This document shows positions 53,191 to 63,106 of a stretch of DNA of 64,000 nucleotides, piece after piece. Each line of letters starts with the position of its first letter. The first letter of the stretch is position 1. The notes below the pieces were generated by a model. It searched no databases and had not been told where the DNA came from. It saw nothing but the letters and a program-made list of their open reading frames with translations. Location of the stretch: NCBI GenBank assembly GCA_963716175.1, contig OY970296.1, forward strand, positions 2,752,001-2,816,000, read 5' to 3'. Source of the DNA: an uncultured Armatimonadetes bacterium (GTDB lineage Bacteria; Armatimonadota; Hebobacteria; Hebobacterales; Hebobacteraceae). A program made the translations under genes and the position numbers.

Positions 53191-53523
53191 AACTGGCCCC
53201 AGGGGCCTCGCGCCAGGCGGTAGGGGCCTGGGCAAGCGAATCGGGCTTGACAGGCGCGGGTGCAGGTAGTAGCGTGAGTCTGGCCTGATGCAGGCAGGTT
53301 GGCGGCCCATGGGTGAGTCGGCGGCCTTGCTGGTTGTGTTTGCGAGGGCCTCTTTGGCAGAAGAAGGCGCGCGTGAGCGCGCCTTTTTGCATGGCCGGAC
53401 GAAATCGGATCTGCTCAAGAGACATAGCGATGAGCGGGGAGGAGGTGTAGCAGGGAGAGGAGAGGATTGGCCTTGATCGTCTGACCTGGCTGGGAAGGTA
53501 CGAGACCTTTTGCAGGGAGGAGT
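53191..53523 (+). promoter_or_regulatory. Conserved prepilin promoter/leader, copy 1
   Basis: TTGACA(53247)-17-TAGCGT; terminator-like hairpin 53364-53388; 15 mismatches to 61676-62008. Confidence 0.8.
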
Positions 53524-53526
53524 GTG

Positions 53527-54558
53527 ATGACAGGAAGAGGGAGAGGATTCACGCTGATCGAGTTGCTGGTCGTGATCGCGATCATTGCGATCCTCGCAGC
53601 CATGCTGTTCCCAGTGTTTGCGCGAGCGCGCGAGTCGGCTCGCAAGATCCAGTGCTTATCGAACGTGAAGAACATCGCCATGGCGTTCCAGATGTACCTC
53701 ACCGACTTCGAGCGGCTGCCGCCCAGTGAGCACAGTGCCGAGGCTAGAGCGTGGGTCGACGACTATTGCAGCCCAGACTGTGACCAGGCTTTGCTGTGCC
53801 GCATGACCGCGGCAAACCCTTATCTGCGGATGCCGGTGATCCTGGACGAGTACGTCAAGAACCGCGACGTATGGCGGTGCTCGAGCGCGAAGTTTGTGAA
53901 CAGCACAATCGCTATCAATACCGGCATGCCTACTTGGATGGCGTACTTCGCCAGGGGCATGGCCGACGACATGTGCCCCAGGCCCAGGCCGTGCACGAAT
54001 GTGTTCCCCCCTGGATGGGGTGGTCTCGCCACCGACACCCTCGCGCAGGGCTGGGACAACGGCTGTGGACTCGGCAGCGGGGCCTTTGACCAGAGCCTCG
54101 CCACTCCGTACTACGACCGCGACCTGAAGATGAATCAGATCGATGACGTGACGAAGCGGGTGGTCGTCGGGGACGGAGGCGTGGACCTCGAACCCTGGCG
54201 CACCTCCGGGTTCGCCTATCCCGATTACTCTCGATTTGATCAGCTCCTCCCCGCCTGCGGCAGCAGCGGCAACTGCTCGACTGACCCGTCCTGTGGCAAC
54301 GCCGCGGTGGCCGCGACCTGTAGCCCCCTGAGCCTGTGTTTTGACGGCGATGGAAAATTCGGATGGGATGCAAACTACAGACAGACCTTTGCCCGCCACA
54401 TGGGCGGCTCCAACCTCGGCTTCGCCGATGGCCACGCCGGGTGGTTCCCCGCTGAGAAGATCCTCTTCGGCGGCTGGAACAACTCGGGCTATGCCACGGT
54501 GCCGTTGGTGTTCGAGGGTTTGGAGTGCTGCTTCTTCCCGACCGACCAGCCCAGATAA
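53527..54558 (+). CDS. Prepilin N-methylation / DUF1559 / H-X9-DG protein
   Basis: [47 protein letters not shown]. Confidence 0.95.
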
Positions 54559-54702
54559 CATTCGCGGTCGGAGCGCCCCCGGGCGCTCCGACGTGATGAA
54601 GGACCCTGCCGTGGAGACGCACTACCCATCAGTGCGCCGTGCCCGCCTTTGCCAAGGCGGGTAAGCTTGTCGGCCGGGGATGGACATGAGCAAAGCTGCG
54701 GG

Positions 54703-56284
54703 TGTCAAATGGCGATGGGACATCCCTGAGCGGCTTCTGGGCTTGCGTGGTAGGCGGGGTCGGTCTATGGTGTGGGACCTTTCAGCACCTCTTCGGGCGG
54801 AACGGACGGCGCTGTGCCGCTACGCGTCGGGCTGCTACTTCCCGCTTGTCGCGATAGGACAGCCGTTTCTCGCGTCATAACATTGGTTCGCGCGCGGCGA
54901 GTCTCAGTGTCGGACAGGCACGCAGCCAGCTCATCCTCCCATACGGCGAAAGCGTTCTTTGGGCCGACTACCAGAAGGCGTGTACTGCGGATGGGCTGCC
55001 CTACGGTCTTCAGCACTCGGAGTCGAATGCCCGAAATATCTGTAGGCGTTCGCCAAGCTCACGTATCTCTTGGTCGAGCTGGATATCGAAGGCACTGCCA
55101 ATCGTCCCAAGATGCACGAGCAGGAGGGCACACGCGGTTCCCACGGCGCGGAATGCAGCTTGCCAACTCGGTCCAAACCACACGGCAACCGGCGCGGTGT
55201 CAGTCGGCGACGCCTTGACCAGGTAACGCGCTAGTGCTATGGGAGCTGCATGAACGCCTGGGCAGAGCTTCCGATAGACACCGTACCAGATGTCCGCCTC
55301 AAGCTCGGACAGTTTCACACGCTCCTCCATCTTGATATCTCTCCAGTACCTACGCTTGCCCCTATGCTTGCCACGCTGCTGCCATGCGAGGGGGTCATCC
55401 GGAGTGGGCACGCCCACAATGTCGGTCGGCCGTAGTGGCAGTTCCCCACGACCCTGTTTCTTCTCTTCGGGCATGTCTATCTGCCGCTCGATCTCTTCGA
55501 TGTAAAGGTATAACGCCGTGCGGTTGTTCCTGACTGCACGCGCGTTCACAACCGCCTCCATCATTTGACGCAATAGGACATCCGCCTCCAAACCCCATCC
55601 CTCGCGGCAAAGAACAACCGCCCCCTCGAAGGAGCCATGGATCACTGAAGTCAAGTTCTGCAGAATCACACCGAGGATTGCATCCATGCTTCCGGGCGGG
55701 AACTGCTGCGGCATGGCATCGATGGCAAAGCGCAGCACGGCGCGGGATTCAGTCGCGACCGCGAGCGCGCTGTCGATCTCCGCCGAGTCTCTTGCTTCGT
55801 CAGGAGCATTCTGCGACATGCGAGTGCCCAGGTGAGTACCTGCATTCCGTGGAGCAAGAGCCTGCCCCTGCCAGCGCGCATCCCTGCGCCCTGCTGGCCT
55901 TCCGAGATCTCCAGCGCCAGAGCCAGGCGGCGCGATTCACCTGTCTTGACCTTCGCTCTCTGCGCCTCCCCCCGGGGCAGTCACAATCACCGCAGCCGCT
56001 TTCGGTTCCCTGCCGTCCTCACCGCGGAGCAGGATGCGGCTATCAAGTGCGCTTGGGACACAGGCGGGGGGACCAAGCCAACGCTCTCCATCTGATCGAC
56101 GGTGGCACAACACCGGGGATGGCCGGGACGGGAACGGCCCCGGCTCACAGGATTGCCAAGCAGACACACTCTCCACCGTAGACAGGCGCCCGAAGGCGCC
56201 GCCCAAAGGTCTCATATGGTAGAATGATCCTCGCCCGCGCACAAGCTCAGGAGCCCCTCAGGGGTGTCCCATCGCTACTTGACA
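54703..56284. mobile_element. Non-autonomous unit bounded by ~100-bp inverted end modules
   Basis: TGTCAAATGGCGATGGGACATCCCTGAG.. versus revcomp TGTCAAGTAGCGATGGGACACCCCTGAG.. Confidence 0.6.
55010..55819 (-). CDS. DUF5677-like helical protein
   Basis: LLRQMMEAVVN, W, YRKLCPGVH pattern; lower GC. Confidence 0.6.
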   Translation of the reverse strand: MSQNAPDEARDSAEIDSALAVATESRAVLRFAIDAMPQQFPPGSMDAILGVILQNLTSVIHGSFEGAVVLCREGWGLEADVLLRQMMEAVVNARAVRNNRTALYLYIEEIERQIDMPEEKKQGRGELPLRPTDIVGVPTPDDPLAWQQRGKHRGKRRYWRDIKMEERVKLSELEADIWYGVYRKLCPGVHAAPIALARYLVKASPTDTAPVAVWFGPSWQAAFRAVGTACALLLVHLGTIGSAFDIQLDQEIRELGERLQIFRAFDSEC

Positions 56285-61670: not shown

Positions 61671-61675
61671 CCCGC

Positions 61676-62008
61676 AACTGGCCCCAGGGTCCTCGCGCCA
61701 GGCGGTAGGGGCTTGGGCAAGCGGATTGGTCTTGACAGGCGCGGGTGCAGATAGTAGCGTGAGTCTGGCCTGATGCAGGCAGGTTGGCGGCCCATGGGTG
61801 AGTCGGTGGCCTCGCTGGTTGTGTTTGCCAGGGCCTCTTTGGCAGAAGAAGGCGCGCGTGAGCGCGCCTTTTTGCATGGCCGGACGAAACCGCATCTGCT
61901 CAAGAGACATAGCGATGAGCCGGGAGGAGGTGTAGCAGGGAGAGGAGAGGATTGGCCTTAATCGTCTGACCTGGCCGGGAAGGTACGAGACCCTTTGCAG
62001 GGAGGAGT
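61676..62008 (+). promoter_or_regulatory. Conserved prepilin promoter/leader, copy 2
   Basis: Colinear with 53191-53523, no indels. Confidence 0.8.
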
Positions 62009-62011
62009 GTG

Positions 62012-63106
62012 ATGACAGGAAGAGGGAGAGGATTCACGCTGATCGAGTTGTTGGTGGTGATCGCGATTATTGCGATTCTGGCAGCGATGCTGTTCCCCGT
62101 GTTTGCGCGAGCGCGTGAATCGGCGCGCAAGATTCAATGCCTGTCGAACATCAAGAACCTCGCCATGGCCGTGCAGATGTACCTGACGGACTACGACCGG
62201 CTGTGGCCAAAGGAGCACCGTCCGGAGGTGATCGCCGGGTCGCATCCGGATAACCCCGATTCGACCAACGGTTGCGCGATGTCGGCCGGCACCAGGATGA
62301 ACCCGTACCTGCAGCCGCCGGTGATCCTGGATGAGTACATCAAGAACCGGGACGTGTGGAGTTGTCCGTCCGCTCGCGCCAGCGCCTCCTGGTCCATCCT
62401 GAATCCGCTGGGGATGGACTGGTGGGTACGGGTCAACACGGTGGACCCACTCAGCTGGGGCGAGGTGGGTGTGGGGCAGTGCGGTGGCGGCAACTTCCCT
62501 CCGGGTTGGGGCGGCGACGTGACCGACACCATTGCTCAGGGAAGGAGCAGCGGGGATAGTCCGGGTGCCTTCCACAACTCGCTCAACGTGATCGCCCTGC
62601 GCGAGGTCAAGACCGCCGAGATAGGCGATCCGGCGAAGTACGTGATCGCGGGCGAGTGCCAGATCGGCCAGCCCGTCTGGGGCCCCCTGGACGTGGCCTA
62701 CCCGGATGCCTCTGCCATGTGCGGGGCCAACCCGGGCTCGCTTGCTTGCTGCGGCGGCAACTGGGTGGACTGGGCAAACTGCTCCTGGAGCGTGGACTGC
62801 GGCGCCGCACACGACCTCAATTACGCCGACACCGAGATCCGGAAGGAGTACGGGAGGCCGCGGCACATGGGCGGCAGCAATGTGGGCTTTGCCGACGGCC
62901 ACGCCTCCTGGTACAACTCTGAAGACATCCTCGCCAACTACGCGCCGGACCAAGGCGTCGTCGACGGCGGAGCCTTCCGTTACCAGTGCTACGGCGTCCC
63001 GGGGGCCGGCGCGGCGCGGGCAAAGCGGGACACCTGGGGCGGCTTCCAAGGCGGCATCTGCGGGATGTGGGGCGCCTTCGGGCTTGTACCACAGGGCTGC
63101 GGCTAG
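62012..63106 (+). CDS. Prepilin N-methylation / DUF1559 / H-X9-DG protein
   Basis: [10 protein letters not shown]..; [14 protein letters not shown]. Confidence 0.95.

Follow-up and report, generated by a model that had tools for sequence, protein, structure and literature searches.

The Neisseria pilE/pilS system joins one promoter and a constant pilin N-terminus to alternative variable bodies. In homology-facilitated illegitimate recombination, described for natural transformation and the uptake of foreign DNA, one homologous anchor is paired with one illegitimate end. To our knowledge, few unexplained paralog families in Planctomycetes, Armatimonadota and their neighbours are as large as that of the DUF1559/H-X9-DG pilin-like proteins, and we know of nothing on how its dozens of copies are regulated or diversified. 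According to the portions of two papers available to us, Planctomycetes families with N_methyl and SBP_bac_10 (DUF1559) domains comprise 41 or more genes per genome, with totals of 91 for Tuwongella immobilis and 74 for Rhodopirellula baltica, and their proteins are found in membrane fractions, with subsets responding to stress; those portions describe no shared leaders or mosaic 5' ends (PMC8567305, PMC2754498). In Moraxella bovis and Moraxella lacunata, an excerpted account describes site-specific inversion between two pilin genes (PMC4073114, citing Marrs 1988, 1990). There, too, a single promoter and constant N-terminus are combined with different variable bodies. In Helicobacter pylori, again as excerpts describe it, intragenomic homologous recombination among the paralogous outer-membrane adhesin genes babA, babB and babC, which share homology at both ends, fuses one gene's 5' region to another gene's body soon after the start codon, placing that body under control of the acquired 5' region and producing chimeras that vary between isolates.

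The locus described here resembles each of these systems in part. It shares identical domain architecture and massive paralogy with the Planctomycetes families, yet its host belongs to an Armatimonadota lineage and 42 of its paralogs have an identical constant region. As in the bab genes, a 5' region appears to have been joined to the bodies of other genes soon after the start codon, but here the family has about 50 pilin-like genes, homology exists at the 5' joint only and a 357-nt non-coding leader is part of the module; leader-body combinations that differ between strains were not seen. Whereas Moraxella and Neisseria rely on a single expression site with a dedicated recombinase (Piv) or promoterless silent cassettes, this genome holds 42 complete genes with their own starts, and no recombinase of that kind is encoded in 10 nearby ORFs. 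With one homologous joint, in the constant region, and a second that is abrupt and non-homologous, at -357, the block recalls homology-facilitated illegitimate recombination, except that both partners here lie within one genome.

The window, the 64,000-nt stretch of DNA that we analysed, holds two of these genes, A and B, each preceded by a copy of the same leader (window coordinates):

53167..53523, + strand: leader A, a 357-nt non-coding block common to a third copy, C; its last 333 nt (from 53191) also occur in B
53524..54558, + strand: gene A, DUF1559/H-X9-DG prepilin-like, 344 aa from GTG, with the likely start at ATG 53527
53545..53682, + strand: gene A constant region, 138 nt encoding 46 residues invariant in 42 paralogs
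61676..62008, + strand: leader B, 333 nt, located by repeat finder and ungapped comparison
62009..63106, + strand: gene B, DUF1559/H-X9-DG prepilin-like, 365 aa

In an ungapped comparison, 53191-53523 and 61676-62008 differ at 15 of 333 nucleotides with no indels, the same count that an earlier reading of the sequence alone had given. The pair is the top direct repeat reported by the repeat finder (BLAST E = 1e-165), and its likeness is far beyond chance. A third full copy, leader C, lies on the minus strand elsewhere in the genome (C1:115317-115649) and differs from A at 16 and from B at 17 of the 333 positions, again without indels, giving ~95% identity and 24 variable sites across the three. 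Homology between A and C extends 24 nt farther 5', to window position 53167; these 24 nt are absent from B, whose 5' edge coincides with the end of an IS481-like element. Among the 42 paralogs, no further pair reached ≥90% identity in the 500 nt upstream, and just nine further pairs gave any match there. The leader was detected in none of the 40 related genomes searched and, with an exact 39-nt pattern, in none of 185,579 species genomes; in a comparison of 30 of the 43 loci of another genus, no leader was shared at ≥90%.

About 50 genes of this genome, among them A, B and C, make up one family: 42 intact DUF1559/H-X9-DG prepilin-like genes, each with its own start and leader peptide and the invariant 46-residue N-terminus, together with 6 frameshifted and 2 headless members. 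The 138-nt constant region recurs as a near-repeat in more than 50 copies, and its encoded sequence is identical also in at least 13 paralogs of another genus. A and B match PF07963 (33.9 and 33.8 bits; cutoff 21.2), TIGR02532 (32.3 and 32.1 bits; cutoff 16.3) and PF07596 (SBP_bac_10/DUF1559; 39.4 and 27.6 bits; cutoff 23.3), the last over just profile positions 2-42 (A) and 2-86 (B) of 268. TIGR04294 scored 21.6 bits for B and 21.8 bits for a headless fragment (cutoff 19); it was not listed for A at E ≤ 0.001, yet A carries the H-x9-DG pattern, and its H285, D295 and G296 are invariant across 40 aligned relatives. An AF2 model of A (pLDDT 79.4) gave no Foldseek match at E ≤ 0.001. In a wide structure search, all 15 chains with Z ≥ 2 were pilins or pseudopilins, the best reaching just Z 3.9 (rmsd 3.8, 117 residues aligned), and PDB sequence matches were limited to residues 2-74. 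The bodies had been described as Cys-rich and strongly divergent. The divergence holds, with 38.9% protein identity between A and B, but their 15 and 13 Cys residues are ordinary for the family (median 13, range 8-18). Across A, B and C, body identity is 36.0-38.9%, against a family median of 41%.

The likeness of the leaders continues into the coding sequence and then stops. Genes A and B begin with 14 identical codons counted from GTG 53524/62009, equivalent to the 13 reported earlier when counted from the better-placed ATG 53527/62012, and the following 33 codons contain 14 nucleotide differences in 13 codons, every one synonymous, as had also been noted. Relative to the Gly codon of GFTLIEL, the earliest A/B difference is at nt 22 (window 53566 / 62051), homology of A with both B and C ends at nt 19-22 (53563-53566), and nonsynonymous A/B changes appear from nt 121 on. 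The constant regions of B and C are identical to nt 71 and diverge at the background rate thereafter.

Leader and body trees are incongruent. A, B and C do not form a body clade, and forcing one costs 77.9 lnL (AU P = 0.00046); in the body tree, C falls in a starred eight-row clade and A in a starred seven-row clade, the remaining members of which do not have the leader. Leader divergence is far below synonymous divergence (15/333 versus 13/39 adjacent third positions; Fisher P = 3e-7), with an A-B leader K of ~0.047 against dS of 0.78-0.84 in the constant region and ~1.0 in the bodies. The pattern that the sequence-only reading had set against its own proposal, congruent trees with leader divergence equal to synonymous divergence, was thus absent on both counts.

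Four other pairs present the mirror case of similar bodies (dS 0.32-0.71) below unrelated upstream DNA (identity 0.30-0.66 per 50-nt bin, mostly 0.35-0.50), and in two of the four, homology sets in at nt 25 and nt 28. Co-duplicated leaders would be visible in such pairs, because two old tandem pairs (dS ~1.0-1.1) retain 69-75% upstream identity. Four orphan constant-region stubs end at nt 21, 21, 27 and 35. Mapping breakpoints, as had been suggested, placed seven of the eight resolvable junctions at nt 19-35 of the 138-nt constant region, an interval defined after the data were seen. A PHI-type test on 49 informative constant-region sites returned no recombination signal (P = 0.81), an outcome probably due to near saturation of third positions.

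Within the leader, three features stand out:

53247..53275, + strand: putative promoter recognized by eye, TTGACA, 17 nt, TAGCGT, with hexamers at -277 and -254
53361..53388, + strand: GC-rich hairpin followed by a T run, terminator-like; the copy B site is 61846-61873
53434..53479, + strand: decayed gene start, with Shine-Dalgarno, GTG, signal-peptide codons and the first five to six constant-region codons

A consensus scan found no promoter above threshold in the leader, missing this one because its second hexamer, TAGCGT, matches at only 3 of 6 positions. Both hexamers are free of the 24 variable sites, and variable sites are sparser downstream of the putative transcription start than upstream (12/242 versus 12/91; P = 0.016); because of these two patterns, some purifying selection on the transcribed leader is possible. 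The hairpin, which might act as an attenuator, sits within the longest stretch invariant in all three copies (60 nt, -179..-120). The leader fold has a z-score of -1.17, and Rfam 15 contains no family for the leader, the best matches covering the hairpin alone at 19.6 bits (gathering score 50; E = 0.55). Homology of the fossil gene start extends to about nt 16 past the Gly codon, and its local alignment score of 37 exceeds that of shuffled sequence (18.1 ± 2.5; 0/300 shuffles as high). A 62-aa ORF within the leader is not coding-like, with codon position 3 holding one of nine variable sites, and Pfam contains no family for the leader ORFs. Compared with its ortholog on a metagenome contig from a second strain, locus C has changed at 12 of 315 leader sites and at 7/229 and 15/269 sites of flanking non-coding DNA. 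Because the leader changes as fast as its flanks between the two strains, it is under no unusually strong constraint, which disfavours one of the two explanations offered by the sequence-only reading, strong selection on the leader.

The other of those explanations, recombination in the conserved N-terminus, is supported by the tree incongruence and by the mismatch between leader and synonymous divergence. We favour, at a probability of roughly 0.7, a recent origin by non-allelic recombination, in which the constant 5' coding region served as anchor and one ~0.4-kb module came to lie on three unrelated bodies. The module would take in the putative promoter and a ~230-nt leader with the terminator-like hairpin and fossil gene start, and beyond these the ribosome-binding site, the prepilin leader peptide MTGRGR and the opening 7 to 23 codons. 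Its homologous joint would be the 138-nt 5' coding stretch that is invariant in the family, and the abrupt upstream joint at -357 is probably illegitimate. Because no homology was found among the A, B and C loci beyond -357 or 3' of the bodies, two-sided classical gene conversion is insufficient, and one junction must be illegitimate. The events may have been homologous recombination or gene-conversion-like, and could have run in either direction, with the leader or the body as the moving part. In an uninformative read search and among the contigs, no alternative pairing of leader and body turned up. Judged from sequence, including what we take the leader to do, three different proteins would be transcribed and translated under the same control, which makes co-regulation of A, B and C probable and defines a 0.4-kb control module for expression studies. 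The invariant N-terminal stretch would then be more than a processing and assembly signal; it would also be the joint where recombination has linked control regions with bodies, in both directions. If general, such a role would explain both a constant head on rapidly diverging bodies and reassigned expression programmes.

A different history, in which the bodies diverged after an old triplication but strong purifying selection for a regulatory RNA or promoter kept the leader nearly unchanged, would account for the invariant 60-nt stretch with its hairpin, the promoter hexamers free of variation and the less variable, putatively transcribed part. We judge it very unlikely: the bodies form no clade, and the closest body relatives of A and C do not have the leader; synonymous sites are identical too, over the first 14 codons between A and B and the first ~30 between B and C; and the ortholog's leader has kept pace with its flanks. 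The absence of an Rfam family, the fold z-score, the decayed gene start inside the leader and the 40 relatives in which the leader was not found also speak against it. False leader-body joins, caused by the repeated constant region during assembly, are conceivable in a metagenome-derived, single-contig genome of an uncultured organism with so many copies of a near-repeat, and no independent contig bridging leader and body was recovered. Such an artefact is scarcely credible, since private variants in each leader point to three real loci, an independent metagenome contig joins the upstream flank of locus C to the leader at 96.9% identity, and one sequencing run contains leader A exactly over 161 nt together with a separate C-type leader piece; nor would false joins yield in-frame genes with pair-specific breakpoints.

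Mobile DNA lies near all three leader copies, and also around a headless paralog in the window:

31148..31843, - strand: truncated IS481-like copy, with the same end toward the headless gene
31839..32105, - strand: short ORF, helix-turn-helix-like from its translation only, between the IS481-like end and the headless gene; presumably an IS3-type orfA fragment
32139..32657, + strand: headless paralog, the C-terminal 172 aa alone, with no leader or constant region
50847..52960, no strand assigned: repeated 2.1-kb segment whose end lies 207 nt 5' of leader A; 99.3% identity to genome 4506755-4504641
56822..58207, + strand: IS256/Mutator-family transposase gene between A and B (PF00872, 104.8 bits)
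59250..60293, + strand: second rve-domain transposase ORF between A and B (PF00665, 43.3 bits, partial domain), probably degraded
60341..61677, - strand: IS481-like element with a 404-aa rve transposase (60342-61556), its end abutting the 5' edge of leader B

The IS481-like transposase scores 128 bits with NF033577 (cutoff 224), 111 bits with the IS3 model NF033516 (cutoff 160) and 54.9 bits with rve, and at least eight further copies or fragments of the element are 71-86% identical. At the start of the IS256/Mutator gene, 99-100 nt are 100% identical at four other genomic sites. An insertion sequence beside the leader might have carried or rearranged the block, with no need for an anchor in the constant region: the IS481-like element terminates exactly at the edge of leader B, the same end faces both headless paralogs (window 32139 and genome 88849), leader C has an IS remnant 206 nt upstream, at nearly the distance of the 2.1-kb repeat from leader A, and transposase DNA makes up ~5 kb of the 7.1-kb interval from A to B. 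We nonetheless regard spread by mobile elements as unlikely. On its 3' side the block ends in frame within coding sequence, at pair-specific positions (nt 19-22 or ~nt 71), leaders A and C have no directly abutting IS, and the IS copies, to go by their identities, are older than the leaders. The IS at B seems to have inserted later, into a leader already in place, because A and C have the 24 nt missing from B. More doubtful is a dedicated site-specific or programmed system that shuffles front ends and bodies family-wide at a fixed site just past GFTLIEL. It would fit the clustering of junctions at nt 19-35, a 19-nt quasi-palindrome at nt 30-48 of the constant region and the near-invariance of synonymous sites at nt 28-38 across the 42 paralogs. 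Against it, the 10 ORFs scanned in 52-64 kb include DDE transposases but no invertase, Piv/IS110 or tyrosine/serine recombinase; the junctions spread over more than one nucleotide, in an interval picked post hoc; reads showed no variant junctions; and there is no single expression site, almost every paralog having a complete start of its own.

It is unlikely, though conceivable, that nt 19-35 form a built-in joint that reassorts promoter-leader modules and bodies among the ~50 pilin-like genes; if true, pilin variation of the kind known from single loci would have an equivalent distributed genome-wide. As a separate observation, these nucleotides adjoin the quasi-palindrome and overlap the pairing site of a candidate antisense small RNA encoded elsewhere in the genome. 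Perhaps the whole taxonomic family of this bacterium, which keeps the same 47 residues across genera, would use a joint of this kind.

Antigenic variation of the pilE/pilS type was rejected, as the family has 42 complete genes and just two headless copies, both beside IS ends. The headless gene in the window, which the sequence-only reading had placed at 32185-32657 and grouped with A and B, is real as an ORF but is not part of the leader module, its nearest paralog being a different gene (58.5% identity over residues 178-340). We also rejected a role as a silent cassette, since it is a truncated paralog among IS fragments. It covers family-profile positions 173-312 only and is an IS-flanked pseudogene fragment.

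Genes A and B, two prepilin-like paralogs with strongly divergent bodies, stand directly behind near-identical non-coding leaders, and a third complete copy of this leader heads gene C, a paralog located outside the window in the same single-contig genome (4.56 Mb, 66% G+C).

Leader-bearing loci (window coordinates unless marked as genome)
53167-53523, plus strand: leader A
53524-54558, plus strand: gene A, 344 codons
61676-62008, plus strand: leader B
62009-63106, plus strand: gene B, 365 codons
Genome 115317-115649, minus strand: leader C, heading a 320-codon paralog (gene C)

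The 15 differences, without indels, that the sequence-only reading had counted between leaders A and B were confirmed over the 333 nt preceding the two GTG codons. Its codon counts (13 identical codons, then 33 with 13 synonymous changes) hold provided that translation starts at the ATG one codon inside the GTG, to which the GGAGGAG ribosome-binding site is better spaced. The 42 nt from GTG to the Leu codon of GFTLIEL are identical in A and B, and the following 117 nt contain 17 differences. Leader C differs from A at 16 sites and from B at 17. Leaders A and C have an extra 24 nt in common upstream, reaching 53167, and the 5′ edge of leader B coincides exactly with the terminus of an IS481-like element that has at least eight more copies or fragments in the genome; leader B was probably shortened by a later IS insertion. 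In an all-versus-all comparison of the 500 nt upstream of 42 family genes, identity of at least 90% was confined to the A/B/C trio. Across 40 related genomes, leader matches were limited to the coding constant region or to short, chance-level pieces, and an exact 39-nt leader pattern had no match in genome contigs and one among metagenome contigs, in a locus C ortholog that ends within the leader. Contigs from four DNA runs were low-depth fragments, none spanning leader and body, and the constant region drew contigs of many organisms. Nearby, a 2.1-kb segment (50847-52960), 99.3% identical to genome 4506755-4504641 and part-repeated near 2.899 Mb, stops 207 nt short of leader A.

Genes A and B both carry the prepilin cleavage/methylation motif (PF07963 and TIGR02532), a partial, above-cutoff match to SBP_bac_10/DUF1559 and a C-terminal H-X9-DG motif. 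With an AlphaFold model of A (pLDDT 79.4), Foldseek against PDB returned no fold for the body, and all 15 chains at Z ≥ 2 in a wide structural search were type IV pilins or pseudopilins, as weak matches (best Z 3.9, rmsd 3.8, 117 residues); PDB sequence matches were confined to the N-terminal helix. A six-frame scan of the genome found 62 GFTLIE-type starts, of which 45 also have H-X9-DG; 42 intact genes have an invariant 46-residue N-terminus in common, and a profile search added six frameshifted and two headless copies. Within the 138-nt region that encodes this N-terminus (numbered here after the Gly codon of GFTLIEL), paralogs differ almost exclusively at third positions, with a median of 18 differences over nt 22-138. 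In G011, a genome from another genus of the same family, the 47-residue constant peptide is matched 43 times, including 13 times at 100% identity, and shorter stubs also occur (loci L025-L054); the closest relative of gene A there, at L043, is 75% identical. Loci of genome G001 entered the protein alignment only. Excerpts of two papers describe a strong expansion of the N_methyl/DUF1559 family in Planctomycetes (PMC8567305, PMC2754498).

The leaders and the bodies behind them record different histories. The A, B and C bodies are 36.0-38.9% identical, below the family median of 41%, and a maximum-likelihood body tree places C in a starred clade of eight, A in a starred clade of seven and B apart from both; the other members of the A and C clades do not carry the leader. 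Forcing A, B and C together, a group fixed on the leader ahead of tree building, cost 77.9 log-likelihood units (AU p = 0.00046).

Divergence among genes A, B and C
Leader (Jukes-Cantor): about 0.047
dS, adjacent constant codons, A-B and A-C: 0.78-0.84
dS, bodies: about 1.0
dN, bodies: 0.61-0.69

The leaders differ at 15 of 333 sites as against 13 of 39 third positions in the adjoining codons (Fisher p = 3e-7). Given the AU rejection and this excess, we saw neither of the two outcomes that the sequence-only reading had named as speaking against exchange, congruent leader and body trees and a leader divergence that matches synonymous divergence; its proposal that the leader is swapped between pilin-like genes by recombination is therefore supported. 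Mirror cases point the same way: four paralog pairs have similar bodies (74-90% protein identity, dS 0.32-0.71) behind upstream DNA whose identity in 50-nt bins ranges over 0.30-0.66, for the most part 0.35-0.50; we take this as absence of homology. For two of the pairs, the initial 24-27 nt of the constant region have 5 and 4 differences, matching the background rate, and only 3 occur over the 111 nt that follow, where the background mean is 16.4. Two old tandem pairs (dS ~1.0-1.1) still have 69-75% upstream identity over 430-500 nt, so leaders that had duplicated together with their bodies would be recognizable. Front ends and bodies thus have separate histories, in both directions.

Where the shared block ends could be located closely in several cases. 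A departs from it 19-22 nt past the Gly codon, and the minority variants GGA, ACG and TTG are common to A, B and C up to nt 19. B equals C up to nt 71, beyond which 8 of 67 positions differ, the background rate; C is identical to a further paralog at nt 73-116, a match that is marginal given 41 comparisons. A nucleotide profile also found four orphan stubs of the constant region, all starting at nt 1 and stopping at nt 21, 21, 27 and 35. Seven of the eight resolvable junctions (A versus B/C, B versus C, two mirror pairs and four stubs) fall within nt 19-35, an interval chosen post hoc. It adjoins the most invariant synonymous sites and a 19-nt quasi-palindrome (nt 30-48; 53574-53592 and 62059-62077) that encodes VIAIIAI, is self-complementary at 18 of 19 positions, contains several GATC sites and is matched by the nucleotide profile on both strands in many paralogs. 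A PHI-type recombination test on the constant region was not significant (p = 0.81). One 21-nt stub (genome 1060835-1060856) lies inside a high-copy repeat whose flanks give 45-70 BLAST matches, and one copy, at 2.026 Mb, is 88-93% identical. Separately, a 26-nt stretch at genome C1:3199832-3199857 is antisense to nt 10-35, a target that overlaps the junction cluster; with G:U allowed, uninterrupted pairing over 16 or more positions was scored 20 times across the 42 paralogs, and sense-strand look-alikes of the constant start lie close by at 3199430 and 3199637.

One joint of the block would be homologous, within the constant region, and the other abrupt, at -357; because of this geometry, one-sided, homology-anchored recombination fits better than classical gene conversion as the putative source of the block. 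Spread by an IS-linked route would account for the IS-rich surroundings of all three leader copies, but the 3′ joints are in frame and pair-specific and the IS copies are older, which makes it improbable as the main cause. The clustering of junctions might instead reflect a dedicated recombination system acting on the family; with no recombinase among the 10 nearby ORFs scanned and no single expression site, we regard this as improbable. Since the three leaders differ from one another and were in part confirmed independently, an artefact of assembly is unlikely.

The remaining alternative, raised by the sequence-only reading itself, was that strong selection has kept the leaders alike. Contig L024, a metagenome contig carrying the locus C ortholog of a related strain (96.9% identical over 1650 nt), disfavours it.

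Differences between locus C and L024, by segment
Leader: 12/315, 3.8%
Flanking non-coding DNA: 7/229, 3.1%
IS remnant: 15/269, 5.6%
Intergenic stretch: 8/434, 1.8%
Coding DNA: 5/400, 1.3%

By these rates the leader is not unusually constrained. Since paralogous leaders diverge by 4.5-5%, the copies separated only slightly before the two strains did. Variable sites among the paralogous leaders avoid the putative promoter hexamers and are rarer past the putative transcription start (12 of 242 versus 12 of 91, p = 0.016), so mild constraint on the leader transcript is possible. Two leader sites group A with the related strain's C and two favour orthology, which weakly hints at leader-to-leader conversion or may be homoplasy.

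The leader contains a putative promoter read by eye (a perfect TTGACA, 17 nt, TAGCGT) and, some 90-115 nt further on, a strong GC hairpin followed by a T run. A purine-rich tract and a ribosome-binding site of good quality are also present. A consensus promoter scan of the plus strand of leaders A and B called nothing, an Rfam scan (E ≤ 10) gave hairpin-level matches and no family, and the whole-leader RNA fold was indistinguishable from shuffles (z = -1.17). Leader ORFs matched no Pfam family and their substitution pattern was not coding-like; similarity to a candidate small-RNA locus at genome 3.199 Mb did not exceed 10-nt words. Because A, B and C have all cis-acting signals in common from -357 to the seventh codon (mature-protein reading), they would be expected to be expressed alike. 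The leader also holds a decayed gene start at 53434-53479, in which a ribosome-binding site and GTG are followed by signal-peptide codons and the initial 5-6 constant codons; its alignment score of 37 compares with 18.1 ± 2.5 in shuffles and was reached by none of 300. An origin of this fossil by tandem duplication was rejected, as the spacer holds no second copy (score 12 versus 12.0 ± 2.2 in shuffles).

Among the 30 of 43 G011 loci covered, no case was as sharp as A/B/C. The distal upstream DNA of one pair matches at 84% across 287 nt, and the bodies of that pair are less than 55% identical; in another pair the bodies are 67% identical and nothing matches upstream. A tandem cluster co-diverges, and one apparent case proved to be a frameshifted duplicate. 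Constant pilin N-termini are combined with alternative bodies in the pilE/pilS system of Neisseria. Pilin inversion in Moraxella does the same, as part of PMC4073114 relates. These systems follow a related logic, but the A/B/C family shows neither a single expression site with silent cassettes nor, among the 10 nearby ORFs scanned, a dedicated invertase. The bab paralogs of Helicobacter pylori are the closest working analogue: passages of PMC4552749 describe intragenomic recombination 60-240 bp past the start codon that places the 5′ region of one gene on the body of another. In the DUF1559 and Armatimonadetes prepilin-paralog literature searched, neither leader sharing nor 5′-end mosaics were described for this family. 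Paralog mosaicism is of a known kind, found here in a large, poorly understood gene family.

The headless third gene proposed earlier exists, as an ORF at 32139-32657 covering family-profile positions 173-312, but the paralog closest to it is a gene at 1.00 Mb (58.5% identity), not A or B. Upstream lie a short ORF, which we take to be an IS3-type fragment, and then a truncated copy of the IS481-like element; the sole other headless copy in the genome, at 88849, abuts the same element end. Both copies are pseudogenes with IS damage rather than members of a silent-cassette bank. This IS481-like end (61677, 31843 and genome 88797) lies just 5′ of three pilin-like genes, all pointing away from it: gene B with its leader and the two headless paralogs. 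This is above expectation for a gene family spanning ~1% of the genome. Between A and B, among transposase genes, stand a gene for a DUF5677 protein and a 296-aa ORF (55010-55819 and 58204-59094), the latter with no Pfam or NCBIfam match. About 100 nt at the start of an IS256/Mutator-type transposase gene (56801-56900) recur at 100% identity at four further places in the genome, suggesting recent activity of this IS. Diverged direct repeats at 16346-17933, 37967-42471 and 47210-47478 (74-82% identical; repeat families D4, D5, D7, D8, D10 and D13) look like tandem paralogous genes. A GC-rich hairpin motif of the GGCGCC-GAAG-GCGCC type recurs at 31705-31753, 43998-44046, 56155-56217 and 61540-61602, two of the four sites lying in the 5′ region of the IS481-like element.
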